Assembly: GCA_024679065.1 (NCBI GenBank) | Contig: JAGIQG010000011.1 | Location: forward strand, 6,758,001-6,822,000 | Source: Sphyrna mokarran | Taxonomy: Eukaryota | Length of the DNA: 64,000 nt | Direction: 5' to 3' | Shown: piece by piece, positions 20,188 through 45,519 of the stretch | Position numbering within the stretch: position 1 is the stretch's first letter | Layout: each line of letters opens with the position of its first letter | Notes under the pieces: model-generated | Database searches by the model: none | Told to the model about the DNA's origin: nothing | What the model saw: only the letters and a program-made list of their open reading frames with translations | Position numbers and translations under genes: made by a program

Positions 20188-20649
20188 GAGTAAGAAGTCT
20201 CACAACACCTGGTTAAAGTCCAACCAGTTTATTTGATAGTAAACCCACAAGCTTTCGGGGTTTGCCCTTTTGTCAGGTGAGTGGAGAGTTCTGATCTCAA
20301 ACAGAGCATATAAAAGGCACACACAGTTTATAGAATACTGATTAGAATGCGAGTTTTTAAAGCTAACCTGCTATTCATGTTTTAAAGATGCAGACAATGT
20401 TAGTGGAGATAGTATTAGGCATAGGTTAAAGAGATGTGTATTGTCTCCAGACTTCCATTCTAATCAGTATTCTGTAAACTGTGTGTGCCTTTTATATGCT
20501 TTGTTTGAGACCAGAACTCTCCATCTACCTGGTGAAGGGGCAAACCCCGAAAGCTTGTGGGTTTACTATCAAATAAACTGGTTGGACTTCAGCCTGGTAT
20601 TGTGAGACTTCTTATTGCATTTACTCCAGTCCAACGCTGGCATCTCCAC
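20188..20649. mobile_element. Non-coding Penelope derivative: inverted pair of terminal repeats, each with a decayed hammerhead
   Basis: Arms about 20190-20349 and 20456-20616; tail ccagtccaacgctggcatctccac; 13-bp TSD aacagga(c/t)ggata at 20175-20187 and 20650-20662; cores ctggtga...gaaagctt (+) and ctgacaa...gaaagctt (-). Confidence 0.88.
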
Positions 20650-23600
20650 AACAGGATGGATAAACACAGCAAAGCACATATTCAGTAAAAACTCCTTGTA
20701 AGTACCCTCTTGCAATCAGTGTACTCCAATATGCCTTTTTAATGAATTTCTAAACACATTTTTTTAAATGTTTTGATATCCTCTGAATAAAATGCATGTG
20801 TTGTATGCATGGGAGTTTTTTTTAAAAACACTATCATTTATTGTTTTTATAAGAAATGGAATAATATTTAGTTTCATAGTTGCAGTATACCAATACAACT
20901 GTTAATCTTTTATCATCTGCACTGCTATGTCCCTGACAGCAGGAAAATAAATGGGAAACTAGTAGAGCAACAACAGTACCATAGTAATTCATCACTGAGA
21001 TTAGTGGGATATCGATTCATGCCAATTCTCAATGTGTGACTGTTGTTCAGCTGTTAGAACTCTCACTCTGGAGTCAGAATTAAAGTCTTGGGTTCAGGTC
21101 GCACTCCAGAGACCTGAGCATCTCAACTGGCACTCAGCACTGTGCTGTCCTGTGGGTCTAAAATATGTGAGGTAAATGTGAGTTTTCTTTCTATGTCTGT
21201 AGCCCTTTGTCCACAGAGTTTCCACTTTGAGTACTGTTGGAGGCCAAGTTCATCATTAATCTAAGAGTTGATCATCCCCAATCACACTGTTAAATTTTAG
21301 TAGTCAACTTTAGAGCAGTGGAAGTTTACCATCTTGACCACAGAGAAATCAGTGAGAATAGTGGTTTGTGAAGTTAAAAAATTAGAGGGAATTTTAAAAT
21401 CTGACTTCTTCCTTTGTTGCTAATCCACTGAATAGAGTAAGAATGGAACTCGCTTCTCAAGGGCAATAGGGGATGGATAAAGGCTGGCCTTGCCTGCGTT
21501 GCTCACTAAGAATAAGCAAAAGTAGAATATTGTGGCTGGTGGAAGTTTGAAATAAAAACTATGCTGGAAATATTCAGCAGCATCTGTGGAGAGCAAAGCA
21601 AAGTTTATATTTCAGATTGATCAGCTTTTGCCAGAACTCTAGTCATTTTTCCACTATGTAAATTAAGGTCATGCTTTTGAAACCTGTGCATGTGGCTCTG
21701 AAGTCTGCTTGCAGGCATTCTTTATGATAATCATTTCTTTTTCTTTAAATAAAAGAAAATCATTAACAGACTGTGTTAGTATGTTCAAGCATGTGGCTGA
21801 AATTTGTTTGGCAGATGTCTTTAAGGTGATTTCGCTCAAGGGAAGAAGACACTTTGTTTTAATTAGCTTTTGGATATAGTACATCTCTTTGAAGTAACAT
21901 TTCGCATCTTAGATTTTAAAAATAATTTATTGGAGCCTTTGAAAGTGTACAGTTGCTTTGTCCAGATCTTACAATTCAGTTGAAAGTGAATAAATGCAAA
22001 TCTGATCCAGCATTAAGAATCCCCTTTCATTTAGCTGATATTAGCCAGAGCTAAACAATTAACCTTAACATGTTATATAAGATCATAAGGAATATGAATA
22101 GGAGTAGACCATATGGCCCCTCGGGTTTGCTCCGCAATTCAATAAGATCAGGCTGACCCAATCTTCACATGATCTTCAATTTCCTGTCTGTTTCCATAAC
22201 CTTTGATTCCCTTATAGTTCAGAAAAAACTTCAGCCTAGAATCTATTCAATGGCCTAGCCTCCGTACTACCTTGAGTAGAGAAATCTAAAGATTCACAAC
22301 CCTCTAAAAGTAGAAATTCCTTCTCATCTCCATCTTAAATGGGCGAGTACTTATTCTGAAACTGTGCCTCCTCATTTACAGTTCCTTTCAAGAGAAGAAC
22401 TATCTTCTCAATATCTACCCTGCTGAGCTCTCTTAGTATCTTTTATGTTTCAATATGATCGTATCTCATTTTTCAAAACTCCAGTGGGTATAGGATGGCA
22501 CTGTGGTTAGCTCTGCTGCCTCACAGCACCGGGGACCTGGGTTTGATTCCGGGTTTGGGTCACTGTCTGTGCGGAGTTTGCACATTCTCCCCATGTATGT
22601 GTGGGTTTCCTCCCACGTGCCGATTAGATGTATTGGCCATGCTAAATTCTCACTCAGTGTATCCGAATAGATGCTAGAATGTGGCGACAAGGAGATTTTC
22701 ACAGTAACTTCATTGCAGTGTGATACTAATAAATAAATTTTAAAAACTTATACAACCTGTTCAATCTTTCCTCATAAAACAATTCCTTTATCCTGGAACC
22801 AATCTAGTTAATCTTCATTGAACTGCCACCAATGCAAGTATATCCTTTCTCAAATAAGAAGACCAAAACTGTGCGGAGTACTCCCAAGTATGGTCTCAGC
22901 AATATCCTGTATAGTTGAATCAGGATTTCCCCATTTCAATACTCTATCCCCTTGCAATAAGGACCAACATTCCATTTAACTTGCTTGTTGTACTGGTGTG
23001 CTAACTTTGTATTTCATGTATGAGGACACCCAGATTCCTTTGTGCTGCAGCATTCTGTAGTCTGCTCTCTATTTAAATAATATTTTGCTCTTCTATTTGT
23101 CCTATCAAAGTACCGTAGATAATCTCAAAAATTCTATCATCCAAATTTTTGCATGCTTATTTTACCTATATCCCTTTGCAGGATCTTTATCCTACTCACA
23201 ACGTACGTTCGTCTGTACAAATCTTTGTATCATCAGCAAACGTGGCTGCAATACACTTTGATCCTTAAACAAAGTTGTTAATAAAAATTGTAAATAGTAG
23301 GGCCGCAACACTAAATCCCTGTGGTACACCTCCAGGTATAGTTTGCCAATCTGAAAATGACCATTTTTTCCCAATTCTGGCTCCTTGATTATTTAGCCAA
23401 CCTTCTTTCCATTCTAATATCCTCCTCCATTTATTTGGTGTAATAACTTTTTATATAGTGGCTTATTGAATATCATTTGAAAATCCAAATACACTGGGGT
23501 GAATTCTAGCCCCTACCACTTCCAACATAAGGGCAGGAAAGGAGTTGCCTTTCACACTGATAACTCTTAGGGCCCATAAATGGCCAATTAATGAGTACTT

Positions 23601-24374: not shown

Positions 24375-25222
24375 ATTCAGCATGATTTGGACAGGCTGAG
24401 TGTATGGACATCTGCATGGCAGATGCAGTATAATGTGGATAAATGTAAGGTTACCACTTTGCTATAGGAAGGTAGATTGTTACTTGAATGGGTATAAATT
24501 GAGAGGTGGATACTCAACAACACCTTGGAGTCCTTGTGCATCAGTCGCTTGAAGTAAACGCACAGGAACAGCAGGCAGAAAAGAAGGCAAATGGTATGTT
24601 GGCATTCATTGTGAGAGGATTTGAGTACAAGGCTAGGGATGTTTTGCTGCAATTATATAGGGCATTGGTGATGCCACACCTGGAGTATTGTGTGCAGTTT
24701 TGGTGTCCTTACCTGAGGAAGGATGGCCTTGCTAGAGAGGGAGTACTGCAAAGATTCTTGGGATAGCAGGTCTGTCATATGAGGGGAGACTAAGTTGGTT
24801 AAGATTATATTCACTGGAGTTTAGAAGAATGAGAGAGGATCTCATTGAAACTTATAAAATTCTAATAGGATTAGAAAGTATAGATTTAGAAAGAATGTTC
24901 CCAATGGTGGAGAGTCCAGAACTATGGATCATAGTTTGAAGATAACAGGTAAGGTGTGGAGAGAACAGGGATGTGGATAAATTTCTTCATCCAGAGGGTA
25001 GTGAATGTGCAGAATTTGCTATCACAATGTCGTTGAGGCTAAAATGTTGTCTAGTTTCAAGAAGAAATTAGATGTAGCTCTTGGGCCTAAAGGGATCAAA
25101 GGATATGTAAGGAAGTGGGGATCGGGATATTGAAATCAACAATCAGCCACGATTAAGCTGAATGACAGAACAGGCTCAAAGTGCTGATTGGTCTATTCCT
25201 GTTTCTAGTTTCGATGTTTCTA
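24375..25222 (+). mobile_element. CR1-like LINE 3' fragment nested in the LTR element
   Basis: DLDRLSVWTSAWQMQYNVDKC and LYRALVMPHLEYCVQFWCPY; CR1-type tail to about 25222. Confidence 0.88.
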
Positions 25223-26599
25223 AATCATCCTGTGCTTTTTCTTCAAATTCCTTGCATTTCTTCGTTGGACTTAGATTTTCTGATCTTATATCTATCATTT
25301 CTTTCTTTGTCTCGGCAGAGCTTTGTCCTGTCTTTCGTTTTGGTCTTGCTGTTAGCAGGTCTATCTCTGGCAAAATCTTAACTTGTTTCAATTCTATAAC
25401 TGTGTTACTTCTGGCTTCGTTCTCTGCTCTTAGAAAGATCTACCATTTTTCCATCCAGCTGCTATTTCAGTTCTTCAAACTTTCTCTTTAGCTTTCAGTT
25501 TCCTCTGGAATTTAGTACACTACTGAGTCTTTTACCAAACGGTTGTTCAGTTTGGTCAGAGTGATGTTAAATCCATTTTGCTTCTCTTCATAATTTTCCA
25601 GAAGAACAAGTTTAGTCCAATGGAATTTTTGTAATGTGAAGATTCTTCAATATGTTTTCCCTTTCTTTGTGAAGCCACCTTGCTTCATCTTGGGGTTTCC
25701 TAAAGTTTCTTCTGCTAGTCTTCCATACTGCCGTTTAAGATCGATTCCATGCTTTCATGGTACTCAACGGTTACACATTCCTTTTGCATTGGATCTTAAA
25801 GGACAATAATTTGTTCTTTGAACAGTTTATTTTATTATTGACCTCTTGCCATTTCACTCTGAGCTTCAGTGCATTGTGTTGTTGTCATGTGGCCCGCTTA
25901 CGAGCCTAGGTTGGTCATCATTGGTCCATACTCTCCACAACTTGGAGTTTAAAGTATATGTCAAAGCCTTTTACTATCTCACCAAATGTTGTTGAATATT
26001 GAGTTGGCTATGAAGAACTTCATCCACAAATAAACCAAAGATAGATAAAAAAAATTAGCTTTTCTTCTGTTTCCTTATTTAATCTTTTAATTTGCTTGTA
26101 ATTAAAAATGGTCTTTTCCAAGACACTCTGGTTTAGCTTAGCCTTTTTCTTATCCAAACTATTTCTTTCTTTTCTGATTTTTTTTTATCCATGAGCTGTT
26201 TTTTTTCTAGTGGTTGCAGCTTTAAATGCCTTTGCCCATTTAAGGCTGTTGGTTCTGTCTTTGTGAATTTCCCATACTGTTTGAAGTTCAATGCAATTCT
26301 CACAATCTAGGGCCTTTTTTCAAAGATCTGTCTTGTTCAAGACAGTCATCTCTGCAGAAGCTCTTTTTCTCCATCAAGGAGACTGGCGACTCAACTGAGA
26401 AGGGATTCCTTTTCCAAACTCTATAGGCTTCTCCTCCCTTTTCTAAAAAAAACATCAGTTTTTTGATTGAAATGTGTTCCTTTCTCTTAAACTTTGCAAG
26501 TTACTCCCTAATTTATTAAAATTCACTTCTGGAGTATGGCAGTCATGTGTTATGGTGCTGCTGTGTATTCCACCTGTAGCTTTCTCCCACCTTTTTCAA

Positions 26600-27252
26600 T
26601 CATGCCCCTATCTACATCAGTAGGAACAAAGTAGAAAGGTTGAGAGCTTCAAGTTTTTAGGTGTCTAGGCCACCAACAACCTGTCCTGGTCCCCCCCATG
26701 CCAAAACTATAGTTAAGAAAGCCCATCAACATCTCTACTTTCTCAAAAGACTAAGGAAATTTGGCATGTCAGCTATGACTCTCACTAGCTTTTACAGATG
26801 CACAGTAGAAAGCATTCTTTCTGCTTGTGTCACAGCTTGGTATTGGCTCCTGCTCTGCCCAAGACTGTAAGGAACTACAAAAGTTGTGAATGTAGCCCAA
26901 TCTGTTATGCTAACCAGCCTCCCATCTACTGACTCTATCTACACTTCCTGCTGCTTTGGCAAAGCAGCCAGCCTGGACATTCTTTCTTCACCTTCTTCCG
27001 TCGGGAAAAACATACAAAAGTCTGAGGTCACGTACCAAGCGACTCAAAAACAGCTTCTTTTCTGCTGCCATCAGCCTTTTGAATGGACTGACTTTGCTTA
27101 ATTTGATCTTTCTCTAGCTATGACCCTAGCACTACATTCTGCACTCTCTTATTTCCTTCTCTATGAATGGTATGTTTTGTCTGTATAGTGTGCAAGAAAC
27201 AATACTTTTCACTGTATGTTAATACATGTGGCAATAATAAATCAAATCAAAG
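26600..27252 (+). mobile_element. Rex1/Babar-like LINE 3' fragment (a second stub at about 48495-48665)
   Basis: KKAHQHLYFLKRLRKFGMS...FYRCTVESILS...TAWY; ends aataataaatcaaatcaaa. Confidence 0.8.
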
Positions 27253-27567
27253 TCTTCCCTGGGATAGTTATCTATTTAAAACATAAATACAGCTTCTGTG
27301 TTTTGTAATTTACTCAGTTGTATCTGACCAGTTTCCTTAACTCTGTGTCACTCAGTGTTTCAAAGTTGTTACTTACTCAAGACCAGATCACTTGGGGTCT
27401 TGTAATGGACTTCCACTCACTTTGGTGGTTTCCTCAACTTTTAAGTCTGAACCCAAACTTCCTGAACTGCTCCTTCAGTTTTTCTTATCAGCTGCATGTC
27501 TCTGGTCAGGCTTTGGTTCTTTTTAATTTTTCATATGTTGGAGATTCTATTTTGAGTTCATTAATTT

Positions 27568-28822
27568 AGGAAGCGTGGTTAAAAAGTTTGCAAATGTCAC
27601 CAAGATTGGTGGCATAGTGCAAGTGAAGAAGGTTATCTTGGATTGCAACGGGATCTTGATCAGTTGGGCCAGTGGGCTTGATGAATGTCAGATAAAATTT
27701 AATTTAGATAAATGTGAGGTGATACATTTTGGTAGATTGAACCAGGATTTACTCAGTTAATGTTAGGGCGTTGAGGAGAGTTATAAGACAAAGGGATCTA
27801 GTTCCTTGAAAGTGGAGTTTACAGGTGGATAGAGTGGTGAAGAAGGTTTTCGGCCTGCTTGGTTTCATTGGTCAGAACATTGAATACAGGAGTTGGGACA
27901 TTGTACAAAGCATTGGTAAGGCCACACTCAGAATGCTATGTATACAGCCCTGGTCACCCTATTATAGAAAGGATATTATTAAACTAGAAAGAATGCAGAA
28001 AAGATTACTAGAGTGCTATCCTGACTTGTTGCTTTGAATTATAAGGAGAGGCTGGATAAACTGGAACTTTTTTTCCCTGGAATGTAAAAGGAGTGATCTT
28101 ATAGAGGTCTATAAAATAATGAGGGGCATAGATCACCTAGACAGTCAATACCTTTTCCCAAAGGTAGGAGGGTTAAAACTAAAGGGCATAGGTTTAAGGT
28201 GAGAGGGAAGAAATGCAAAAAGATGCAGAGGGGAGAAATCAAAAAGGTGCAGAGGGGCAATTTTTCACCTACTGGAGGATACATTTCTCACTATCTATCC
28301 TGTCCTCTCCATCAAAAAATCAGTCAGCACTATGCTGACTTCCAATCTGACTGCCTCTCATTGATAATACACCAGGAGCAGTCTTAATAAGTAAATAGTT
28401 GGACTTTTGCCCTTCTTAAACAGAAGACCCACCTTGAAATCTATTGGCCAAATTGATTTTCAACTAGCTTGCTAGTTCCAGCAGTACCAGAACACAATAA
28501 GCGGCCACTGCTGGCACTGAGTCATGAGAACTGAAGGTAGACTCTGGATTTCAGGTAAGTTCAGGTGTTTAGGCTGGGGACATTTCCGTGACCCAGGAAG
28601 ATGGGTGGTGAATGTCTGGAAAAAGCTGCCAGAGGCAGTAATAGAGGTGGGTACAATTTTGTCTTTTAAAAAGCTTTTGGACAGTTACATGGGTAAGATG
28701 GGTATAGAGGTATATGGGCTAAATGTGGGCAATTGGGACTAGCTTAGTGGTTAAAAGAAGGGATGGCATGGACATATTGGGCTGAAGGGCCTGTTCCAAT
28801 GGTGTAAACCTCTCTGACTCTA
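27568..28822 (+). mobile_element. CR1-like LINE 3' fragment split by a foreign segment at about 28270-28600
   Basis: KFANVTKIGG, FNLDKCEVIHFG, WSPYYRKDIIKLE; resumes VVNVWKKLPEAV after about 28600. Confidence 0.85.
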
Positions 28823-30388
28823 CTTGTATGCCACGTTTCATACCACCACTGATCATCATGTTGTGTTATGGATTCATATGATGTCTCAAAGATATATGTC
28901 ATCTTTAAACATGAACACTTTATTGTTTATCTTTAACTATACACAAGTCCCAGTTTACTGTCATAAACAGTGTTGCTGTGCAGATTGATTCTTTCTAGAA
29001 TGCTCTGAAAGTCTATAACCGTGTACCCTCATACATCATTACGTGGGCAATGCTGTTCTCCAATCCCACATTAATCCTCGCTCTGCCAAGCATCTTTACA
29101 TTGCAATGGCATTCAGACACATGCAGCATCCATGGCAGTAATGCGTTTGACTGGGAAGCGGGAAAACCAAGTAAAACAAGAAAGCAATTATCTCCTTTAG
29201 GGATATGACCCTTGTGCCTTTTGTGAGCAGTGCCCTCAGGCCACCCCCCTGCTTCTCTCCTTGATTGCTAAAACCAGGACACCCGCAACACCTTCCACTC
29301 AATTTCTTCCTGAGGTCACAAAGATGACTCCAGCCTAAACACCTGGATTTACCTGAAGTCCAGAATCTATTTTCCGTTCTTGGACTCATAGTACCAGCAG
29401 CGTCTAAGACTGCACTGGTGTACGATCAATGAGAGACAGTCAGGTTTGAAGTCAGCATGGTGCTGACTGATTTGATGGAGCAAAGAAGGTGGGTAATAAG
29501 CAATGTGTCCTCCAGTAAAATTGCCCAGCTATGTCTACTGGTTCTCCATCATCCACAGAGTTTGTTATATCCTCAAAGAACTTGACTATATTTGTCAAAC
29601 ACAATTTCCCTTTCATAAAAACATGTTGACTGTGGCTAATTGTAAATGTCTAAATGTCTTGCCACTACTTAATAACAGATTACACCAATTCCCCAGTTGC
29701 AGATGTTAGGCTAACTAGCCTATAGTTTCCTGTTTTCAGTCTCCTTTCTGTTTTGAATAGAGATATTTCATTGTATATTCCTATCTGCATTCTTTGCAGA
29801 TTCTATAGTATTTTGGAAGATTATATCTAGAACATCCACAATCTCTACATCCCACTTCTTTTAAGATCCTAAGATACACAGCACCAGGTCTAGGGGACTT
29901 GTCAGCCTTTAGTCCTATAGATTTGTCATGTATTTTTTTCTCTAATGATTATTATTTTAATTTTATCTCTTTTGCCCCTTATTTTCTATTCTTATTAGGA
30001 TGCTTCTTTTGCCAAGATAGCTGCACGTTATTTATCTGTCATTTTCTTATTTCCCCTTATTAATACCCAAGTTTCATTCTCTTAAGGGACTGATAATCAT
30101 TTCTGCTAATCTCTCCTCATTTAGAGACTTGTAGTTCTTACTGTTTATATTACTTGCTAGTTCATCTCATAATCTTTTTTCTACTTCATTATTTTTTGAG
30201 TCATTTTTGCTAATTATTAATATGCTCAGAACTCTCCTGCTAATATTTATAGCATTTGTACACTTTTTTTTGCAACTTGATACCATCCATTGTTAGATAT
30301 GGATAGTTCATCCTTCTCAAAGCCTTTCTTTCTCAAAGGAATATATCATTGTTGAGAGTGGGGAAATATCCTCTGAAATCTCTACCTC

Positions 30389-31199
30389 TGTTTGTTTTTT
30401 TATATCATGTTCTCTGCAATTTGTAAACTTGTCTTTTGGTTTCATTGTGGCACTGGCTGTCTATTAAACATCCTTTTATTGCTGTTTCAATGGTGTAAAT
30501 GGGATTTTGTTTATTTTTACTCTGGGTCTCAGGTGCTTTCTGAGATTTGTTTTATGACCTTGCATTGTTAGGGAGAAGATTAGGTGTGTTTTAGACAGTT
30601 TCTGTTCTTAATGAATTCAAGATTTCACTTTCAGCTTTGAGGCTGCTAACTGCTGGTTTAGTTCGTAGCTGTCCTGGTTGTCAAGTGGAAAACAGTGTTT
30701 TTCTGCCCCCCCCCCCCCCCTGGTTTTGGAAATTCTGCTGGCTAGCTGGAAGCAAGGCTTCTGGCCTTCCTGGAGTAAAAGTTCTGTTGCTGGTGGCTCA
30801 CTAGTGTCTCTTTGGTGTTTTGGAAACATTCTGACTTCAAGCTTGTGTGTGTCTCTTAAGAGAGAACTTCGGTATCCAACCAAAGAACTAAGTTCCGGCA
30901 CCACGTAAGTATTCATATTTGTTGTGTTAAACCTGTGGCAAGGGTTTTAATTGTGAGATTTGTTTAGTTGGAATGGTTTTAGCTGTTAGGATTTATACAA
31001 TATCATCATTTTTTTCTTGTTTGTAATTAGTAAAAGTTATTGTTAATTTTCTTCCTATACACGTTAACTGTATTCTTAAACTTTGATCAAAGCTCCCTAG
31101 TGGGTCAGTTGAATCATACTCAAAGTGCTCATTCTAGTCAAATTCAAATTGCAAATCTGATGATCTAATATTGTGGTGTTTCTGACTTGAATTATAACA
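30389..31199. mobile_element. Probable solo LTR
   Basis: Non-CR1 block interrupting the old CR1; begins TG, ends ataaCA; flanks tacctc and taccac (6-bp TSD, one mismatch); contains a C15 run at 30706-30720. Confidence 0.55.
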
Positions 31200-32057
31200 T
31201 ACCACTGTTTGACTACCATCTTAACATTTTAAAAATACTTTTCCAGTCATCTCTTATCTTTAAATTGTTTTTATTTATACTTAAGGCTCTAGTTTCAGAC
31301 CCACGATTCTCATCCTCAAACTGAAATTTTTTCATCCTCTTCGCTAGAGAATACTTATGAATTCATTACTTAATTCTGTATCATTGCACATACCAGGTCT
31401 AAAATAACCTTTTCCCTCACTGGTTCCACAATGTTCCGAATACACATGTTCAACTCATCTTTAAAGGCAATGTTGCAATATTGAGTTGTTCAATCTGTGT
31501 GAAGATTGATGTTGGCCATGATTATTTTGTATTTTTCTTATATTTTTTGATTTGTAAACTCTCTCCTACAATGCAGCCACTCTAGACTACTCCTGCTGGC
31601 GATTTCTTACGATTGCTGCTTCTTAAACCCACCCAAACTGACTCTGTAACTTGATCTGCAGAGTAAGATCATTGCTCTCTGTTGTACTGATCTCATCCTT
31701 ATTTAGCAGAGCCACCCCACCTCCTTTTCCTTTTTACCTCCTTCCAAAGTGCCAAGTAGCTAAATATTCAGTTCACAGCCATAGTCATGTTGCAGCCTTG
31801 TCTTTGTAATGGCTGTCAAATCATTCCCATTTATTTCTATTTGTATCATCAATTCCTCTGTCTTGTTACAAATGCTGCATGCATTCAGATAATAAGACTT
31901 TAATTCTTAATTTTACCATTTTTCCTAACTCTGATCTGATTTCTTGGTGCACTGTTATGTTTTTGTTCTGATGTAGAGATGCCGGCGTTGGACTGGGGTA
32001 AACTCAGTAAAGTTTTACAACACCAATTTTAAATCCAACCAATCTATTTGATAGTAA

Positions 32058-32097
32058 ATTCACGAGCTTTTGACTCTATAGCCTTCGTCAGGCAAAT
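32058..32097 (-). ncRNA. Hammerhead motif copy with mutated GAAA box
   Basis: Reverse complement atttgc-ctgacga-aggctatagagtc-AAAA-gctc-gtgaat; GAAA changed to AAAA at a CpG. Confidence 0.65.
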
Positions 32098-34342
32098 GCA
32101 GTGTTCTGGTCTGCAGAGGCACTCATATCCACACAGACAGTTACAGATTGCTGATTAGAATGCAAATCCTTACATCTAACCTGCTATTCAAGTGTTAAAG
32201 TGGCTAACAATGTGTGTGAAGGGAATCCTGAGCATTGGTTACAGAATTGTGTATTTCCTCCAGACAGCACAGTAAGTGAGGTTTTTTGCTAACCCAGGCA
32301 AGTTACGGGGGTTACAGATAGTGTGTCATGAAGCCAAGATCCCTATTAAGACCATCCTCATTTGTGCGGAACTTGGCTATCAGTCTCTGCTCAGCAACTC
32401 TGCGCTGTCGTGTGTCACGAAGGCCCCCTTGAAGAACATTTACCCGCAGGTCGGAGGCCGAATGCCCATGACTGCTGAAGTGTTCGCCCACAGGAAGGGA
32501 ACTGTTTTGCCTGGTGATTGTTGAGCGATGCTCATTCATCCGCTGTCGTAGTGTCTGCATGGTCTCCCCAATGTACCATGCTTCGGGACATCCTTTCTTG
32601 CAACGTATTAGGTAGACAACGTTGGCCGAGTTGCAAGAGTATGTACCGTGTACCTGGTGAATGGTATCCTCACATTTGATGATGTCGTCCATGTCTATGA
32701 TCTGGCATGTCTTGCAGAGGTTGCTGTGGCAGGGTTGTGTGGTATTGTGGTCACTGTTCTCCTGAAGGTTGGGTAGTTTGCTGCGAACAATGATCTGTTT
32801 GAGGTTGTGCGGTTGTCTGAAAGCAAGAAGTGGGGGGGTGGGGATGGCCCTAGCGAGATGTTCATCGTCATCAATGATATGTTGAAGACTCCGGAGAAGA
32901 TGTCGTAGCTTCTCCGCTCCGGGGAAGTACTGGACAACAAAGGGTACTCTGTCCACCTTGTCCCGTGTTCGTCTTCTGAGGAGGTCAGTGCGGTTTATCG
33001 CTGTGGCACGTTGGAACTGTCGATTGATGAGTCGAGCGCCATATCCTGTTCTCACGAGGGCATCCTTCAGCGTCTGGAGGTGTCTGTCACGATCCTCCTC
33101 ATCTGAGCAAATTCTGTGTATACGGAGGGCTTGTCCATAGGGAATGGCTTCTTTAACGTGTCTAGGGTGGAAGCTGGAGAAGTGGAGCATTGTGAGGTTG
33201 TCTGTCGGTTTTCGGTACAGTGAGGTGCTGAGGTGACCGTCCTTGATGGAGATGCGTGTGTCCAAGAATGCAACTGATTCTGGAGAATAGTCCATGGTGA
33301 GTCTGATGGTGGGATGGAACTTGTTGATATCATCATACAGTTGTTTCAATGATTGTTCACCATGAGTCCAAAAGAGAAAGATGTCATCTTTCTATCTAGT
33401 ATAATGTATTTAGTATATAAGTTTGGTTGAAGATCTTATGTGGTGAAGAAGTCTTGTTCGAACCTGTGCATGAAGATGTTGGCATACTGAGGTGCGAATT
33501 TGGTCGCCGTGGCTGTTCCATGTGTCTGGATGAAAAGCTGATTGTTGAAGGTGAAGACATTGTGGTCCAAGATGAAGCGGATGAGTTGTAAAATTGCATC
33601 CGGAAACTGGCAGTTGTTGGCATTGAGTACTGAGGCAGTTGCAGCAATACCATCGTCGTGGGGGATGTTGGTGTAGAGCGCCGAGACATCCATTGTGACA
33701 AGGAGTGTCCCTGGTTCAACTGCTCCATGTGTGCTGAGTTTCTGTAGGAAGTCCGTAGTGTCAAGACAAAAGCTGGGGGTTCTTTGTACAATGGGTTTCA
33801 GGATGCCCTCGATATAGCTGGAGAGGTTCTCACACAGGGTCCCATTGCCCGATACGATAGGACGACCGGGTATGTTTGCCTTGTGTATCTTTGGGAGGTG
33901 ATGAATGAGCATCGCTCAACAATCACCAGGCAAAACAGTTCCCTTCCTGTGGGTGAACACTTCAGCAGTCATGGGCATTCAGCCTCCGACCTGCGGGTAA
34001 ATGTTCTTCAAGGGGGCCTTCGTGACACACGACAGCGCAGAGTTGCTGAGCAGAGACTGATAGCCAAGTTCCGCACACATGAGGACTGTCTTAATAGGGA
34101 TCTTGGCTTCATGACACACTATCTGTAACTCCCGTAACTTGCCTGGGTTAGCAAAAAACCTCACTTACTGTGCTGTCTGGAGAAAATACACAATTCTCTA
34201 ACCAATGCTCAGGATTCCCTTCACACACATTGTTAGCCACTTTAACACTTGAATAGCAGGTTAGATGTAAGGATTTGCGTTCTAATCAGCAATCTGTAAC
34301 TGTCTGTGTGGATATGAATGCTATTGTAGACCAGAACACTGC

Positions 34343-34382
34343 ATTTGCCTGACGAAGGCTATAGAGTCGAAAGCTCGCGAAT
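34343..34382 (+). ncRNA. Minimal type I hammerhead ribozyme motif in Penelope terminal repeat (core intact)
   Basis: AUUUGC-CUGACGA-A-GGCU-auag-AGUC-GAAA-GC-UC/GCGAAU: core boxes, 4-bp stem II, 6-bp stem I, palindromic AGCU stem III; predicted cleavage after 34376. Confidence 0.8.
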
Positions 34383-34449
34383 TTACTATCAAATAAATTG
34401 GTTGGATTTAAAATTGGTGTTGTAAAACTTTACTATGTTTTTGTTCTGT

Positions 34450-36040
34450 CATGGACATGTGCATCAGTGGCCAGGCCAGCATTTGGTGCCCATTCCTAAC
34501 TGTCCTTGAGAAGGTGGTAGTGAGTCATCATCTTGAACCACTGCAGATTATCTGGTGCGGGTACAGCGCTTTAAGAAGGGGCTTCCAAGATTTTGACAGC
34601 TATGGGGAAGGAAAGGCAATACAGCTCCATGTCGAGATGGTGAATGGCTTCGAGGGGAACCAGGATTTGGTGCTTCCCATGTATCTGCTGCCCTGTCCTT
34701 CTAGGTGGTAAAGGCCACAGATTTGGAAGGTACTGTCATGGAAGTCATGGCAAGGTTTAAATGTTTAAAGTGGATAGGAAGCTAATCAAGTGGGCAGCTT
34801 TGCCCTGGATGCTGTTGACTTTCTTGAAAGTCTTTGGAGCCACACAGTCAGGCATGTGAAAGCTATACCATCACAATTCTGACTTGTGCCTTGTAGATGA
34901 TGGACAGACTTTGGGGAAGCAGGAGGTGAATTAGTCCCCTCTTTATTTCCAACTTCTGATTTGTTCTTGTAACCACAGTATTTATTTAGTTGGCTAATAT
35001 GGATGTTGTTACTGGAAGATTCAGCAGTGGTAATGCCCTTATATGTCATGGGAGATGATTAGATCCTGGGATGGTCATTGCCTCACAGTTATTTGGCACA
35101 AACGTTACATGCTATTTATCAGCCCAAGCCTGAATATTGCCCATATTATTGTTGATTAAGTGCCACTTGATAGCATAGTTAATGTCACCTTCCATCACTT
35201 TGTTGGTGATGGAAAGGAGGCTGGTAAGGCAGTAATTGGCCAGATTGGATTTGGCCTGATTTTTGTGAATCCCTGTGTAATTTTTCGCATTGGAGCTGTA
35301 TGAGAACAGCTTTGCTAGGTGTGTGGGTAGTTCTGGAACATGTATTTTTGCAAATGCTATTGCTGGAATATTGTCAGGCTCATAGCCTTTATTGTATTTA
35401 TTGCCTTCATCCATTTCATGACTTCACATGGAGAGAATTGAATTGGTTGAAAATTGGCATTTGTGATACTTAGACCTTTGGACGAGGCTGAGATGGATTG
35501 TGAACTTGGCACTTCTGGTTGAAGGTGGTTATCTGTTGCACTGATGTGCTGGATTTCTTTATCAGTGAGCATGCTCCACCAGCAGTCATGACTGCTTTGG
35601 TAGGACTGCAGAGTTTTGATTTGATCTGTTGGTTATGGGAGCACTTACCTGGTCTGTTGTGTGCTGCCTCTGCTGCTTGACATCCATGTCATCCTGTGCT
35701 GTTGCTTCACCAGGTTGGTGCATCTAATGCTGCTCCTGGCATACTCCCCTGCACTCCTCATTGAACCAGAGTTGATCCCCTGGTTTGATCGTAATGGTGG
35801 ATTGAGAGATATGCTGATTTATGAGGTTACAGATTGTGGTTGAACACAATTTTACTGCTGCCAATAGCCCACAACTCCTCATGTGTCCAGCTTTGAGTTG
35901 CAAGATGTGTTTGAATCTTAGTGTTTGTATGCTCTGTCCTCTTGTCACACTCTGATTATCATTACTCATGAAGTGCCTCCCGTCCCCAGGGAGCAGCTCC
36001 CTCTTCTTCTGGTACTGGTACCAGTCCCTATGATTTGAAA
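34450..36040 (-). mobile_element. Old CR1/L2-group LINE fragment (related pieces about 57870-58175)
   Basis: Decayed ORFs TITIKPGDQLWFNEECR, PDNIPA...LAKLF...NLANYCLTSLLSITNKVMEG, NIQAWADK. Confidence 0.75.
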
Positions 36041-36405
36041 CCCATTTTTCCAACACTAATGCTTGGGTCAGGAAGTGGAAGCATTGCTGCTGAGTACTGT
36101 ATCTGATTCATGCTGGAAAACCGAGATGCACGGATGACAGGTGAGAAAAGAATTGGGCACAGCAGTGATCCAATTAATGGTTGAATGGCCTCCTGTTGTT
36201 CACAGGTCTTGCCTGTTTAATGGCTGCTCTGGGAAACAGTTACTTTATGAAAAACTCTGTGTTCAAGAGACAGAAATAGAATCATTGGCAGAAGCAAGAT
36301 ACACTTCTGTCAATTGCAGGCTGTGAATGTGTGAAAAATTCAGTTGTGTGTTACAAAGAAAAACAGTTTATTTTATTCCCTTTAATTGATTAAGCTAAGG
36401 GCTAA

Positions 36406-36570
<165 letters not shown>

Positions 36571-37229
36571 TAGAATGGAACATGTCACATAAACGAGGTG
36601 CATTAGGTCATGACATCTACAAACTTTGGGACTCTGCTCATACTGCAGGAAGATGAGTGCTTTTACTCTTCCATGTCTTGGCTTTGTTGTCAATTAACAG
36701 GACAGCATCACACTGTTTAAATCATTGGTATCATTTGGTATAGTGCATGGTTGGGTGCTCAACTAATAAGAATTACAAATACCTATCAAAGAGGATTCGT
36801 TTGAAGCAAGTCTCTCATGAGCGCTAAAGTAGTTTCTTAGCTCATTCAGGCTTTGAGCAGGGTGAACACATGGTTACGGGGATAGGATCTGGATAAGATC
36901 TCCTTTGGAGAAGAGTCAGTGCAGACTTGATGGACTGCCCAATCATTTTTATGTGATTCAATCTTCAGAAATTTGCATCACTACTAAGGTCAGTAGAGCA
37001 GACGGTGCCGTAATGGTTAGCATTGCTGCTTCATTGCTGGCCTGGGTCACTATTTGTGTGGAGTTTGCACATTCTCCCTGCGTCTGCGTGGGTTTCCTTT
37101 GGGTGTTCCGCTTTCCTCCCACAGTCCAAAGTTGTGCAGGTTAGGTGAATTAGCCATGCTAATTTCCTCCTTAGTGTCAGGGGAAATGTAGATTTCTTTT
37201 GGTAAAGTGTCACACAGAAGACATTTAAC

Positions 37230-38135
37230 AAAATGGGCATTTATGGAATTGAGCGAAAATTGGCAGTGTGAATACAGAATTCTGTCAGTGAGAGGAGGCA
37301 GAGGGAGGTGATAGATGTCAATCAGATTGGGGAAGTAGTTTGCAGTGGTGTTCTCCAGAATCAGTTGCTTTTTAGATTGTTTATAAAAATTAAATTAGAC
37401 TCAGCATTATGAAGTTTGTAAGTAATGTGAAACTTAGTAATGTAATAGGACAGTGATGAGGATAGTTGTCGACTTCCAGATGACAGTTAGAATGATGAAA
37501 TTAGCAGATGCAAGGCAGGTAGATTTCAGTGCAGCAGAATGTGAAATGAAGGCTAATATAGAAAGGCAGTATACTATATAATATTTTGAAAAGTGTAAAT
37601 GAACAGATAAATCTTGGTCCTTATAGGTAAATTCTTAAAGGTGGTTTGGCAAACTGATGTGGTTAAAAAAGCATACAATTATTTGCCTTTATAAATAGAA
37701 GCACCGGATGCAAAAGCAAAGAGCTCATGTTAAACTTTACAAATTACTTGTTCGCCTTAGCTGGAGAATGGCAGACTGAAGGTGAATAGATGACCTTAGA
37801 GAGGTATTCAAGATGATGAGAGGTTTAGATAAAGTGGTTGAAGAAAAATTATTCCATCTGACAAGAGACCCAGAGGTCATGGACTGAAAAACGTTTGCTC
37901 AAGATCTAGCAGGGAGATAAGTAGGATTTTAGTTATTCAGAGTTACTGGTATCTGGAGCTCGCTAAAGCCTGATGGAAGCAGATTCCATACATAATTTTA
38001 CATTAAGTTAGACGGATCTGTTGAAGATGAAGGATTACAGGGTTCTGGGCAAAGAGCAGGGGTGTGGTGCTGACAAAGAGTCGGCATGGCAATGAAAGTT
38101 GAAAGGCCTCCTCCTGAGCTTCAGCTTTCTATGAT
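37230..38135 (+). mobile_element. Heavily decayed CR1 fragment (similar debris about 16800-17525, 39290-39420, 40030-40200, 43860-44290, 45130-45520, 53240-54160, 56970-57620)
   Basis: Recognisable CR1 nucleotide motifs (gcagagggaggtgatagatg, ggttaaaaaagcatac, gaaaggcctcctcctg...ttctatgattc) without open frames. Confidence 0.65.
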
Positions 38136-38797
38136 TCTTTATAGGCCAGACTGCATAAGGATAACAGGTTTCCTTTCCAAAAGGACTTTTACTGAGGCAA
38201 GCTCTTTTTTATTTCCAGGTTTTGAATTCAAATTCTGAAGCCAGAATATGGATTTGAACTCATTCTCATAACCCATATTCTATCTGCCCTTGCATTCAGC
38301 TTAGCACAAGTATGAAGTCAGTCTTTTCCTTGATTTCATTCCACCAATATATCCCTATCTGCAAGTTATTGAGTCACAACTTATTAATTGAGCTCTGTAT
38401 GTATGAAGAATTGTTAAGCATATTTTATTTATTAATTTTTGTTCCAAAACATTTTCTCCTCCTCCCTCCTTCCCTGGATGATGTAGCATTTCCTGCTTGA
38501 TAGGAGGGAATTCAGTTTATTTGTCAGCATCACTATTGATAATCCTTCTTGTTAGTACTTCCCTCATTCTCCCCCACACTGGCCTCATCTGTCCTCCCTA
38601 TTAGTATCCATTCAGAAGCAGTCATCTCTTTCAGTGGTATGTCTGAGAATAAGAATCTGCCTGGTCAGACTTAATACTGTGCCCTACCACTGCACGCTCT
38701 GCCCATGCCATCTTTCCTTCTTAATTTCATTTGGTCTCTTTATCTGTTTTCGCCTTGTACGCCTAGAAATGATGTGGTCTTTTTCCTCTTCCTCTAG

Positions 38798-38896
38798 ACA
38801 ACATTGCTTCAGTTCTGGGAGAGGACAGCCCATATGATGTCTCAGATTCACGAGAGTTTCAAGGGCCATCAACAGTATAAATTTACCACGCTGAAG
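38798..38896 (+). CDS. ICA1L: ICA1L coding exon
   Basis: Acceptor ttttcctcttcctctag, donor gtaaga; 99 nt, phase 0 to 0; TTLLQFWERTAHMMSQIHESFKGHQQYKFTTLK. Confidence 0.95.
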
Positions 38897-40304
38897 GTAA
38901 GATTGAAAGAAAGCCGGAAGAGGTCTGTCTGCCTGTCAAGTCCGTTTCTTACAAAAATCCATCTGTTTTGCCTTCTGACAAATGGTCTCACAAGCTCTCT
39001 GTTTGACCCATCAAAACAGTGCTATAAAGTCCAGATTGCATTCGATATTCTTATGGGAATTTAAAACATTGGTTGATGCCTGGAGAGCTTTATGCTCAAT
39101 ATGGATAGAAAATACCTATCCATTGCCTCTATTGGGCCCCCAAAGCAGCAGTGGAGCATCTCGGTGCATTCTCACTATTTCATTAGAAGCAAAATCAGTT
39201 TACTCATGCAATGACTTATAATCTAGCATGCACTGTAAGAAAGGATTGTGGGAATACCTTCAAAAATAATGCTCAAAAAGGTCTTGGATAAACATAAACA
39301 GGAAAGGTTTCTGGTCCTGTGGTGAAAGAGCAGGGGGGTGAAACTAATAGGGTAGCTTTTCAAAAAGCCAGCACAGGTATGATGGGCCAAATGGACTTCT
39401 GTGCTGTAATATTCTATGATTATATTCATGATTCTATAATTTCTTCTATCAGAAGTGTTCCCCTGGTGTCCTCGCTAACAAGTGTGGGCTGCCTTTAAGT
39501 AGCATTATTGATACACAATTTCTGGCCTTATCTTACAACATGTGCAACCAATGACTAGCGCAGTTTAGTCTGGCTGCACACCTTCTTCATTAAATGAACA
39601 AGCACATTTCACGTATGCCTGAGAGATTTGTAACAGATGGTGGTGGCATTTGATAGATAGGCTTTCTTTGTTCATACCATACACTAAGTGACCATACCAA
39701 GTTGTCATGGGAACAGTCGCTTATTATGAGCAGCCAGAGGAACAAGCCTGTGCTTGCAAAACCCAGAAGTATGATGTTAGATATAATTCAGCAATTGGGA
39801 AATACCTGGCAAATAATCCTGAGTGTGCTAATAGCCATACTAACAACCAATTTAAGATGATCAGTTGAGCTTATAATATAGCTCATAAACACTTGCCAGA
39901 AGGGAATAAATTCTTATGTTGCCCATTTGTGTGAATGTGATTGTAATCCCACCAGCCACCAGGTGACATAGTGTCAAATTTTACCTCATTACACGGAAAG
40001 AAAATATATTGTGATGTTTTAGTATGTTCAAGTCAAGAGTGGATAGGTTTTTAATTGACAAGGGAATTAAGGATTACGGGGAGAAAGTGGGAAAGTGGTA
40101 CTGAACCACTACAGATCAGCCATGATCTTATTGAATGGTGGGGCAAGCTCGAGGGACTATATGGCCTGCTCCTGCTCCTAATTCTGATATTCTTATGTTA
40201 AAGGTACCACGTAAATGCAAGTTCTTGTTGTTCTGTCAGCCATAGTTTGTATTCAATTGTTACTCTTAGAAGAAAGCAGTTTATATGTTAGGATCCCGGG
40301 TTAA

Positions 40305-42304
40305 TGTTATAACTGAATGGGAAGTTCCCAGAAATAGAACCCTGGCTCAAAACGTTGTCAGGGCGATTCTACCAAAAATATTCTAAGTGTCAGATTCATG
40401 TGAAAACTGGAGTAAATCATGCTGTTTTTTCGGTGGGAGATAAGAGAAGAATCTCTCTGTTTGTGTACTGCAGAGTGTAAATCCCGCTGGAAAGCACTGA
40501 GTGGGCCACTGCGCATGTGCTGATCTGTCAGCACCTAGATTGATGCACAAGCAATGGCCCCTGTCTGCTGGCCTCCCGATTTGCCCCATGACCATGCAAT
40601 GCCACCCCCGTCCCCGACACAGCCTGATCATTGCCCCACCCCAATGGCAGCGCTGGTCACTGGCCTGTCTCCTCCACTAATCCTGCCATGTGGCAGCAGA
40701 ACTCCTGGAGGCAGTGCCAAAGTGTCCCCTGGGCACTGGCATCTTGTCTCTTGGGCAATGCCAGGGGGCTCAGGCTGGCACTACTAAAGTGACAATGCTC
40801 AAAGACACTGACCCCATACCCTGCTGCCCGACTTCTGGGGGGGCTTTGATTGGCCCCCACTTCACTCCAGCATGTGGAAATCTCTGGGCCCACTAGCTCC
40901 CCACAAGTAGCTGTAGTAACCCTGCTGGAGTGAAATACTCCTGGCGGAGGGGGAGGGAGAGGCTAGCAGGCCCAGAGATTTCCATCCCAGACCCGCTAAT
41001 GCCATTTAAACGATATTGAAAGGAAGGGCTGCAAATATTATGCCAGAAATCTGGTGCTGGGAGACACACTAACAGCCGGATGCCCAATGCAAATTGCACT
41101 AATCTGGCACTGCTTAAATCTCCCAGCCTGCTCCACTAAAAATTCAGTGTAGTGGGATGGGAGAATTCCGCCATCTCTCATGTAACTTTTATTTTTTTAA
41201 TAACAGACTAACAGGCTGCTAATTAATTTTAACAAAACATTTATTAAAAAGGAAAAAATTTGGATTGTCACACAGTATTCCTTTATTCCCTCCTTGACTT
41301 AACAAATGCAAGTTTAAGGATTAATACAGTTGAATAAGTACTTTTGAAGTATTAGTAGTCTCTTTAACACACAAAGTCCTTTTTTAAAGTATACAAGATG
41401 TGGTCAAATGCATAGTCTGCTCTCAAACCCAAGCTAATGTCTGGATTTCTCCTCTGAAACCCCCCCACCCCCACCCCTGGGGATTATCATGTGAGAGTTT
41501 CCAAACTCTCCTCAAAACCATGCTTTAAAACCTTCTCTTGTAGCAAAATTTTCACTGAATGGTTCACATTCTGAATTCCAACCTACGTTTTCCAAAGGAT
41601 TCTTGAGCAGAGTTTCTACTCCACTTCTACCGGCAAATTCACTCCAGTTTTTGTACCAATCCATTTTGTCTTGACTGTTTCTACACACACAAGCTCCACT
41701 ATCCAGCTACTGATTGCTACAGATATTTTAATTCATGTCTCGCAGTGTGTAGTTAAATCTCTCAAACTTGAAAATCACTTCAGATCTTTTTCTGATGTCT
41801 CAGCCTTCCTCTAGCGCTCTCTGTCTTTACTGAGCCGTCCTGTGTTCTCCTGCCTTTAATTTCATTCTGCTTGGAAAATTTTCTCACTCTCTCTAGTTTT
41901 CTTAACTAGCTACTCTTTAGATAACCATTATTCCATTGTATGGTTTTTCTTATAGCAAAGCTGAGAGAGATGTTCCCTCTCTACCTTTCTAACACCCCAC
42001 TACTTTTAATAGAACTGGTGTAGGTGTTCCCTTTCTACAACGGTGTTAACTTTCAGTTAAAAACTAAGAACCTCTAGTTGCTAAGCAACACCTGCAGTTT
42101 TACCTTTATATTTACATTTTACATTGCAATTCTCTTTAAGCACAGCACAAAATCTAAATCCTTCCAAGTACAAAATCATTGAAGTAGACACATCTAAAAC
42201 TATACCTTATTTTGAATGTTTATCAGTACATAAAGAATCCCTTAAAACTATCTTTGGTTTACTAACTTAATTAATATCTTTCAACATCTTAAAAAAAAAT
42301 CACA
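40305..42304. mobile_element. Possible solo LTR-like repeat split by a MITE-like element
   Basis: Begins tgttataac (reverse complement resembles the ttataaca end at 31199) and ends atcaca; no TSD recovered. Confidence 0.4.
40361..41172. mobile_element. GC-rich non-autonomous DNA-transposon-like (MITE-like) repeat
   Basis: Sharp GC rise; imperfect terminal inverted repeats gggcgattct and agaattccgcc; related ends near 1950-2020, 23494/29527 and 43523-43702. Confidence 0.6.
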
Positions 42305-42924
42305 AAAGGAATACATTGCTGACAGTTTGCTTTTCTGGTGTCATCACTGTTTCCTTTGAAAAAGGAACAGATCGTTCCCAGGCTACACTGTTAACTTCTA
42401 GTCACCAGTAGAGCAGCTTATCAAAGAGCTGGAAGCAGTCGCCTGCCTGGTATCCAGGCCACATGGGGTTTTGACCAGCGAGTGGTTCAATGTACATTTG
42501 ACTATAAATAGAATAATAATGGGTAATGAGAACTCATTCATGGAGCAAGTCGTCAACTAGATTTGAGTTGCAAGCAGAGAGTTTAAGTTACATTGCAGCA
42601 TTGCTGTTGGTCAAGGATTTTCTGCAGTCAGTATACACAGGCAATGGAAGATCAGGAAGAACTTACATTTTTACATAGTATCTGTAATGTCCTTTGGACA
42701 TTGCATATGTCAGGAAACTTGGCAACTAATTTATTAAACCGTTAACAACAATGAGATAAATGACCCATGGCTCTGTTTTGGTTGAGGGATGAATATTGAC
42801 CAAGACACTGGCTAGAACTGCTACTTCTCTTCAATTGATGCCGTGGGAGGCTTTAAATCTAAGAGAGGAGAGGATAGATTGACGATTGTGCCATCAATTG
42901 ACATTGATATCTGTCACTGCTGAC

Positions 42925-43030
42925 TGCACTTGCCTGATGAAGACACGGGAGTGTTGAAAGCTCGCTATTTTACTATCAAATAAATCGGTTGGATTAATAA
43001 TTGGTGTTGCTAAATTCTTACTGAGTTCTT
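42925..43030 (+). mobile_element. Solo Penelope terminal-repeat insertion carrying a hammerhead core
   Basis: ctgatga-a-gacac-ggga-gtgtt-gaaa-gctc followed by tactatcaaataaatcggttgga, as in the 34.4-kb copy; flanked by the 9-bp direct repeat actgctgac (42916-42924, 43031-43039). Confidence 0.8.
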
Positions 43031-43243
43031 ACTGCTGACAGATCCAAAGTTGTTGCAGATTGCTAGTGAGACAGCTCAGTGAAGGAGTCGCCACTTCATC
43101 CTCCAGTACTCGATAACATGTACAACACATTCCCCCTTGCAATATTAGACCCAGGGATAATTAGGTAGTATCTAGTTGTCATTTGTAGGGTCTTTTTTCA
43201 GACTCTAAATGTTTTGGTTGTTTTTTTTATCTTAAACTCACAG

Positions 43244-43335
43244 AGCTTGCAGGACCCTTTTCAACATCTGACTGAGGAGGAGTTTAACCAGACCAAGGAG
43301 AAAGAGGAGGAATGCATAACTGATGATATAGACAA
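43244..43335 (+). CDS. ICA1L: ICA1L coding exon
   Basis: T-tract plus actcacag, donor gtaagt; 92 nt, phase 0 to 2; SLQDPFQHLTEEEFNQTKEKEEECITDDID(K). Confidence 0.88.
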
Positions 43336-45519
43336 GTAAGTAAGGATTCCTGTAATCACAAACAGGGGAGGGGATAGAAGGTAATAGCTGTACCTCGCTA
43401 GGCAGCAACTGCATTGCTCACTTGTTGCACACTCACATTATGTCTTGCTCGGAGCAAGTTTCAGGCAGTTTAGAAATAAACCTGAGATGCTGCTTTAAAA
43501 TGTGTCTGTCCACAAGACATGAGGGCAGAGTATTTTAGTATGAGCTCGATCATTGCTCTTCCAATTTCCAGTGCAGTGGGAAAAATCCTTCCAGCTGTTT
43601 TCACTTAACAATCTTTATTGGTTGTCTGCCTGAGATCAGTTAAAATTGACTTGAGAGCTGTGGATGACTCAACGCTATTGATCGACATGTGGAAGAATTT
43701 CCTCTCATTGTCAACAATGGAATATATTGGAAAGGGGACTGACATATGTTACCCATTTTGCACACTCCTGATAAGTGGCCTGAAATGACAAGCATGAACG
43801 ACCAAGGTTTATCACTGATGTCAGCTGTGGCTTAGTTATAACACTCTTTTGCCTCTGTGTCTGTAGGTCAGGATGATCTAGTTCCTTGAGCCTATTCTGC
43901 CATTCAGTGAAATCATAACTAATGTATGATTTAACTGCATACACTTGCCTTTGTTTCATATTCTCTCGATCCTTACTTAACAGAAACCTGCTTTAAAATG
44001 AACAATTGACTCAGCACTGAGTTCCTTTGTGTCGAAATGTTTCCTACCTTCACTCCTGAAATAATTGATTCCTACTTTAAGACTTACAATCTCCCAACCA
44101 GCCAAAATAATTTATTTCTGTCCACCTTCTTCACTTCTTGATCAAATCATCCTTTAATTTTCTAAATTCCAGGGAATATAACTCTAGTTTGCCTTGGAAA
44201 TTTAACCTTTGGAATCTAGATATCATCTAGTAAGATTATAGTGCACTGTCTCCAAGGCCAATATATCCTTCCTGAGGTGCAATGCCCAGAAATGAATGCT
44301 GTACTCCTCTCGCCGAATCTTCTGTCTGCTGACCCTCCCTCCCATTCGCCGACCCTCCAGCTCAGGCCTGTCCTGTTCCTGACCATTCTTTTCCCTCTCA
44401 CTGAATTCCAGTTTTGTGGCTTATGGCCTGTCCTGTTCCCTGGCCTTCCTGGTCTACACTGACCCACCAGCCCATAACCTTTCCTGTTCCCTGACCCTTT
44501 CCACACCCCTCCCTCTCACTGCCATCCATCTCATCACCTCTTTCAGGCCCTTGCTGCATGAGAGACTTTCCCCACTGTCTGGCCCAGGAGAGGGTGGCAC
44601 AGGGAGGTTTGGGAGAGAGCTAGTAAGGGGGCAGCATGTGTGGTGATTGGGAATTTTGGCAAGCAGAGTGGCTGGGACCAGAAAGGTTGGGGAAAGTAGC
44701 ACGAGGGAGAACCAGGGAGCAGAAGTTCAGATGAGTAGAAAGAAGTAACATATTTATTTTATATTTTAAGTTTATTTTGTTTTGAAAGTTATTTCCATTT
44801 ACCAGTATAGAAATTCAGCAATGTGAAATATTTCAACTTAGAACATAAAGTTTTCATATATTTTGTTGATAGAATAAGTGCTAAAAAGTCTAACTACAGC
44901 TTTTCCCTTGGCTATCACAGGAAAATCCAATTTGCTTAAAGTTGTTTCACATCTAGTTGCAATTTTCAGGGATGCAACTTTAAGTGCGAACTTACTGTAG
45001 GTAACCTCCCTTGTGGGAGGTTACTATTCACCCCTGTCAATTACAGTACTTGTCTCTTTTCTGCTTACTCTCTGTTCCTGTCTGCTCAACAAATTTTCTA
45101 ACTAGAAAACCTTCAATTCCATGAGCTTCAAACTTAGCTAGTGGGTCTTATAAGGAATTTTATCAAATGCTTTCTGGAAACCTAGATGAATAATATTGAC
45201 ATTATTTGGCTCACTACCTTAGTCAAGCCTTCAAAAAGTTTATTCGGATTCATTAGACATGCCCTACCCTTTACAATTCCATGCTGCCTCTTTACGATCG
45301 GTGGATATTTTTCAGTAACTTCATTCTTAATTATAAAGTTTCGTAATTTTCCAACAAAAGATGATAGGTTAACTGGTTTCCATCTGTCCAGTTTTATGAA
45401 TAGCAGAGTAAGGTATGTAATTTTCATATCTAATGCAATGGTTCCTGAATCAAAAGAAGATGAAAGATTAGTTAGGGTGCCTGCAACTTTCTCACCTATT
45501 TCCTTTAAAACTATGGGAT

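Follow-up and report, generated by a model that had tools for sequence, protein, structure and literature searches.

Does the hammerhead ribozyme motif that lies complete on the sense strand of an ICA1L intron in this shark cleave the pre-mRNA of its host gene? The initial annotation had regarded the motif as a notable and potentially self-cleaving site. Here, we consider this proposal in the light of the motif itself, its relatives in the genome, the element in which it resides, and the transcript in which it would be found. The window refers throughout to the whole stretch of DNA that was analysed, 64,000 nucleotides in length.

A hammerhead motif in an ICA1L intron

Searches by tblastn with shark ICA1L proteins place the ICA1L exons in order on the + strand of the window. 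The protein matches (10/10) are all named islet cell autoantigen 1-like and derive from sharks and rays, the best being 91% identical, and an exon at ~59.0-59.3 kb matches Pfam ICA69. The same type of search also places a more distantly related ICA1L-family locus on another contig, and a fragment resembling the last ICA1L exons, with stops, at C1326:33247477-33247774 (- strand) is possibly a processed or partial pseudogene. The exon order agrees with the location given by the initial annotation, i.e., the sense strand of an ICA1L intron, and the following features, of which the parts of the hammerhead were read from the window sequence, can be listed:

10485-36432, + strand: ICA1L host intron, 25.9 kb, GT...AG, between the exons that encode ~aa 128-195 and aa 194-236 in the shark homologue
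34343-34382, + strand: minimal type I hammerhead, with the core and stems of the family majority; predicted cut at 34376/34377 if active
34343-34348, + strand: stem I 5' strand, AUUUGC
34349-34355, + strand: hammerhead core box, CUGACGA
34356, + strand: extra A, between positions 9 and 10.1
34357-34368, + strand: stem II, GGCU/AGUC, 4 bp, loop AUAG; G10.1-C11.1 is G34357-C34368
34369-34372, + strand: GAAA box of the hammerhead
34372-34375, + strand: palindrome AGCU, remnant of helix III
34376, + strand: C17 of the UC cleavage site, followed by the predicted cut 34376/34377
34377-34382, + strand: stem I 3' strand, GCGAAU
34391-34396, + strand: AATAAA hexamer, with a GU-rich stretch downstream to 34423; a pseudo-LTR family feature in most subfamilies

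Every part of the motif that had been annotated (CUGACGA, GAAA, stems I and II, the extra A, AGCU, and the UC site) is thus present at 34343-34382, at a distance of 2,056 nt from the intron acceptor. The CUGANGA and GAAA...UH core is complete, and the additional nucleotide separating positions 9 and 10.1 (A34356), the G10.1-C11.1 pair and the palindromic AGCU are those given for minimal hammerheads in passages of PMC4209133. The motif furthermore sits within the pseudo-LTR of a Penelope-like element. By sequence and position, it is the minimal type I hammerhead that is standard for the Penelope pseudo-LTR, and the word intact applies to it at the sequence level. Judging from its sequence, the AATAAA directly after the hammerhead may represent, on the host strand, a premature poly(A) signal. 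The same intron also holds a degenerate 44-nt tandem repeat at 13958-14515.

Within the 64-kb window, the bare pattern CTGANGA-N6-30-GAAA occurs at chance level (6 found vs 6.7 expected), and an Rfam scan of positions 25000-45000 at E<=10 returned 16 weak matches, none of which is to a hammerhead family, a result that is uninformative where helix III is absent. The case for a hammerhead therefore rests on evidence from the family.

Conservation of core and stems in family copies

The 2.77-Gb genome contains 154 exact copies of the 40-mer. The core pattern CCTGAYGAA-N8-18-GAAAGCT, which requires no stems and makes the AGCU palindrome common to all matches by construction, gives 43,582 genome matches vs 7 for the reversed control, corresponding to one match per 63.6 kb. 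Core conservation across family copies is borne out by these counts and by the identity of the motif with the family majority; the flanks of the motif are conserved as strongly as the motif itself in family copies. Genome-wide, many core matches have a neighbour on the other strand within tens of bases, and any RNA copied across such a pair would fold into a perfect hairpin. Of the first 100 matches listed in the CpG family search described below, 24 make up 12 opposite-strand pairs within 4 kb, and one same-strand pair is present (both counted by eye).

Pairing in the stems was evaluated in the first 30 loci of the core-pattern search, which all lie on one contig and are not a random sample. 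For the first three pairs of stem II, a mean of 2.93/3 is paired vs 2.51 with shuffled partners (0/2000; 30 loci), and for stem I the mean is 4.97/6 vs 4.69 when shuffled (9/2000; 30 loci). Covariation was counted in 27 rows, i.e., four window copies and 23/30 loci, leaving out L032, L033, L034, L045, L053, L055, and L056 as near duplicates or for rearranged flanks; the rows are related, and the figures are not probabilities. Among these 27 related rows, 91.3% of the cells are paired vs 81.1% with shuffled partners (0/500) and 29-41% with slid partners, and covariation thereby supports helices I and II. Pairs changed on both sides (4/8) are not above the level of the shuffles in the same 27 related rows (144/500). 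At the level of sequence comparison, the pairing indicates that the hammerhead fold was retained while the subfamilies diverged.

The Penelope-like element carrying the motif

The motif at 34343-34382 lies within one arm of a 541-nt inverted repeat with 96% identity between the arms. This repeat is part of the following unit:

31956-31970, + strand: target-site duplication, left copy, 15-nt exact; end bases overlap the element ends
31971-34434, main body on the - strand and inverted copy on the + strand: whole element, 5'-truncated, one insertion, with 15-nt exact direct repeat flanks
31971-33898, - strand: main body of the element, with RT fragment, CX4CxxC linker, GIY-YIG, 3' UTR, hammerhead twin, and tail
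31971-32005, - strand: tail of the Penelope-like element, ~35 nt, left arm only
32058-32097, - strand: hammerhead twin, with a CpG change of G12 to A; predicted masking complement of the sense copy on the host strand
32312-33391, - strand: 359-aa open frame with RT end, linker CHSNLCKTC, and GIY-YIG endonuclease (GIY-YIG 22.5 bits, cutoff 22.6)
33436-33898, - strand: RT fragment (RVT_1 E=0.003, under the curated cutoff)
33900-34434, + strand: inverted 5'-truncated terminal copy with GIY-YIG coding end, 3' UTR, and hammerhead, without tail
34434-34448, + strand: target-site duplication, right copy, 15-nt exact; end bases overlap the element ends

The 15-nt exact direct repeat on either side of the whole unit shows that 31971-34434 constitutes a single insertion. 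The RT fragment stops just before the RT YIDD motif, and a frame break occurs near 33392-33436. RT and C-terminal GIY-YIG belong to one open reading frame, for which the matches in the window are weak and the family loci continuous (627 aa in L062). The segment CHSNLCKTC agrees with the CX2-5CxxC linker between RT and endonuclease, a motif that passages of PMC8557442 give as typical of Neptune and Nematis elements. The element is likely, from its sequence, of the Neptune type, with the linker and the vertebrate host as the grounds on which Neptune and Nematis are separated. Element anatomy and family evidence together uphold the annotated identity of the motif as a dimer-type minimal type I hammerhead of a Penelope-like element. 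A non-LTR retrozyme, which consists of non-coding tandem repeats of 50-1000 nt with a hammerhead in each, was considered and rejected for this coding insertion with inverted arms.

Compared with the majority of 70 aligned family segments, the two arms show 9 and 12 differences over 535 sites; at about 2% from the family majority, the insertion is therefore young. For comparison, 15 family loci were fetched, and the 7 with two opposite arms were chosen. In these loci, which were selected because two arms are present, a single arm bears the full tail (7/7), and a flanking repeat of 12-16 nt with <=1 mismatch surrounds each unit (7/7). At L061 and L074, the upstream terminal repeat continues into a start codon that lies ~95 nt beyond the predicted cut. 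L074 carries two same-strand hammerhead motifs 3,018 nt apart, the second of which has G8 changed.

Orientation and decay of the antisense twin

Because the insertion is tail-out inverted, the sense strand of the host carries one hammerhead, preceded by its own complement. From this anatomy, we infer that a tail-out inverted insertion would present the motif on the transcribed strand in either gene direction, and always after the complement. A special meaning for the sense orientation was accordingly rejected, as the tail-out structure forces a sense copy.

The antisense twin at 32058-32097 has lost its GAAA box, as had been annotated, through a change of G12 to A. The second change in the twin is in stem I, where a G-U pair is retained, and the AATAAA is changed as well. 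In hammerheads, G12 is the general base (passages of PMC6155905). At the family CpG formed by C11.1 and G12, 855 copies have CG, 108 have CA, which breaks the core, and 87 have TG, which spares it; equality of CA and TG is not rejected (p=0.15, all genomic contexts pooled). Since the CA and TG counts at this CpG are similar, the loss of G12 in the twin is, as far as sequence tells, ordinary CpG decay. The CpG at positions 7-8 shows 8 CA and 7 TG (counted by eye among the first 100 matches listed in the CpG family search). Selection preserving G12 in inserted copies was rejected on the same counts (CA 108 vs TG 87); the sequences of inserted hammerhead copies give no sign of selection, with the pooled CA/TG test leaving room for a sense-intronic subset. 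Elsewhere in the left arm (32113-32122), three adjacent non-CpG differences from the family majority (32116-32118) may be due to clustered mutation or to conversion from another subfamily.

Predicted folding in the pre-mRNA

For the isolated 40-mer, the predicted probability of the hammerhead fold is 0.015, and single-strand folding of five stretches gave no complete hammerhead, with z-scores all between -1.3 and 0.3. The duplex between the 40-mer and its twin is predicted at -68.6 kcal/mol vs -6.6 for the monomer hammerhead fold, and the active homodimer at -12.9 vs -24.7 kcal/mol for the best alternative dimer. These nearest-neighbour folding energies ignore tertiary core contacts, proteins, and helicases. 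The duplex of the whole arms is predicted at -1027 kcal/mol, of which -872 is reached before the motif is transcribed. As the initial annotation had suggested, the motif would be masked by the inverted arm: the predicted fold of 31950-34460 pairs 39/40 motif nucleotides with the upstream arm. A search of the window for a sense-strand dimer partner matching 34343-34382 found none.

Other hammerhead copies and repeats in the window

A short relic from another subfamily (42923-43030, + strand) has an intact core at 42934-42963 on the ICA1L sense strand. This copy lies 8.6 kb downstream of the motif at 34343, in a later intron and ~270 nt before the acceptor near 43243, and its stem I is only 2 bp, as in L033, L034, and L047. 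No close inverted arm was found for it, the best antisense match being 79%, and it is less masked than the copy at 34343. The heterodimer of the two is predicted at -11.0 vs -19.3 kcal/mol for the best alternative. An older, short tail-out inverted pair from a third subfamily occupies 20191-20654, with both cores broken (20529 on the + strand and 20276 on the - strand). Counted by strand, the window contains two intact and one broken hammerhead on the sense strand, and two broken on the antisense strand, with 1 chance match; these are too few for a statement on depletion. Two LINE-like RT-coding copies (18004-19757 and 45522-47618) are 94% identical and in opposite orientation. They flank the exons at 36.4, 38.8, and 43.2 kb, an arrangement that could promote exon skipping or the formation of circular RNA.

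Passenger or active ribozyme

Based on these observations, we assign a probability of roughly 0.87 to the explanation that the hammerhead is a passenger copy from a Penelope-like insertion and likely inactive in the ICA1L pre-mRNA, where it would be paired with the inverted arm transcribed before it. The motif would be maintained in tandem source elements with two same-strand copies ~3 kb apart, which could process the RNA of the element, and after insertion the hammerhead would decay neutrally. According to passages of the literature, minimal hammerheads that lack a stable helix III would cleave weakly, and only as dimers through the AGCU palindrome or with the protein of the element. When ICA1L is transcribed, the antisense arm (32000-32540) would emerge first and the sense arm after it, and the 535-bp arm duplex would be zipped over ~440 bp by the time the hammerhead emerges. 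Judging from the predicted pairing, cleavage of host RNA by 34343-34382 is likely to be negligible. Two observations speak against a silent passenger: all 40 nt are free of mutations in the sense copy but two are changed in the twin, although an unmutated copy is common given 154 exact copies, and the intact sense-strand core at 42934-42963 has no close inverted arm. The notable self-cleaving site proposed for the host pre-mRNA appears weak in view of the 154 exact copies, the orientation set by insertion, and the CpG decay of the twin; in addition, published passages describe minimal hammerheads of Penelope-like elements that show no activity as monomers and little as dimers (PMC4209133) or that depend on the protein of the element (PMC11167929).

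That some ICA1L transcripts are cut in trans at low rates, by an AGCU heterodimer with other sense hammerheads in nuclear RNA, is an unlikely alternative to the passenger explanation. The duplex would first have to be unwound or edited, possibly with help from the protein of the element, and little effect on the mRNA would be expected. Partners would be at hand, since the AGCU palindrome is shared, by pattern construction, by all 43,582 core matches and a second intact core is present in the same pre-mRNA at 42934, and dimer and protein-assisted cleavage are described in passages of PMC4209133, PMC6765202, and PMC11167929. Yet the arm duplex is predicted to be far more stable, the copy at 42.9 kb lies in a later intron and forms the heterodimer at -11.0 vs -19.3 kcal/mol for the alternative, and rates in vitro are low even for tandem dimers (passages of PMC4209133). 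It is very improbable that the motif has been domesticated to regulate the splicing or level of ICA1L, like the hammerheads of RECK and other amniote genes. An intact motif on the sense strand, 2 kb before an acceptor, is what such a role would call for, and conserved intronic hammerheads do exist in amniotes (PMC6155905, in part), but the insertion is young (~2% from the family majority), family copies conserve the flanks of the motif no less than the motif itself, and the orientation is set by the structure of an insertion in which the motif is predicted to be masked by its own complement. That short motifs have come together by chance and form no hammerhead is almost certainly wrong. The bare core pattern at its expected level in the window, the Rfam result for 25000-45000, and a predicted minimum-energy fold other than the hammerhead agree with chance; 43,582 core matches vs 7 in the control, compensatory changes in both stems, and the fixed position within the terminal repeat of the element do not, and covariation and copy counts together refute this explanation.

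The single locus carries little weight, since both the motif and the element that harbours this copy have been described before. With ~1 intact core per 64 kb, the shark genome should be a good system for studying Penelope hammerhead cutting in vivo, as tens of thousands of copies are available for measuring intronic strand bias and cyclic-phosphate ends. A bolder proposal, which we regard as a long shot, is that more than 40,000 cores sharing AGCU make partners so dense that intronic copies, the one in ICA1L among them, are cleaved at a measurable rate, either in trans or with the protein of the element; tail-out inverted insertions would then be tolerated in introns as self-masking in either direction, and unmasked sense copies would be selected against.

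Comparison with known systems

Our literature search found no publication on hammerhead ribozymes in shark genomes, where the supplements of papers may already list shark motifs, and the passages of PMC4209133 that name vertebrates with minimal hammerheads in Penelope-like elements do not include a shark. A 2026 preprint, in the part available, counts one chondrichthyan among retrozyme-bearing genomes and places 42-44% of Xenopus copies in introns. By structural descriptor, ~4,000 motifs were reported for coelacanth and ~9,000 for Xenopus (PMC4209133); the 43,582 shark core matches exceed both, but do not require stems, and with different search rules the numbers are not strictly comparable. 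Stem II has 4 bp in the shark motif compared with 7-8 in the minimal hammerhead of Schistosoma. As for activity, Cervera and de la Pena (2014, PMC4209133) describe a minimal hammerhead as inactive as a monomer and of low activity as a dimer, even a tandem one, and a review that covers Lunse et al. 2017 (PMC6765202) gives very low rates for hammerheads of Penelope-like elements even as dimers.

With the Neptune-type EN+ elements of Craig et al. (2021, PMC8557442), the shark element shares an RT followed by a C-terminal GIY-YIG, the CX2-5CxxC linker, 5' truncation, an inverted truncated 5' copy, and a 30-40 bp tail at one end; an inverted truncated copy with a one-end tail has already been described for Penelope-like elements (passages of PMC8557442 and PMC11167929). 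The Poseidon element PAc from Anolis (PMC11167929; Frangieh et al. 2024) likewise carries its hammerhead within the pseudo-LTR and has a tail delimited by two alternative 3' ends. Unlike PAc, the shark element has a Zn-linker, and its start codon is located ~95 nt after the predicted cut site, whereas that of PAc is within stem II. The passages on the anole hammerhead report that it is cut only with the protein of the element and is dispensable for insertion in vitro, and that reads from the anole show no RNA ends at the hammerhead cut site.

Conserved intronic hammerheads of amniotes, e.g., that of RECK, are similar to the shark motif in being intronic, type I, and derived from retroelements (passages of PMC6155905). 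Unlike these RECK-type ribozymes, which are conserved at single loci, the shark copy belongs to a multicopy family, is a young insertion, and lacks a stable helix III.
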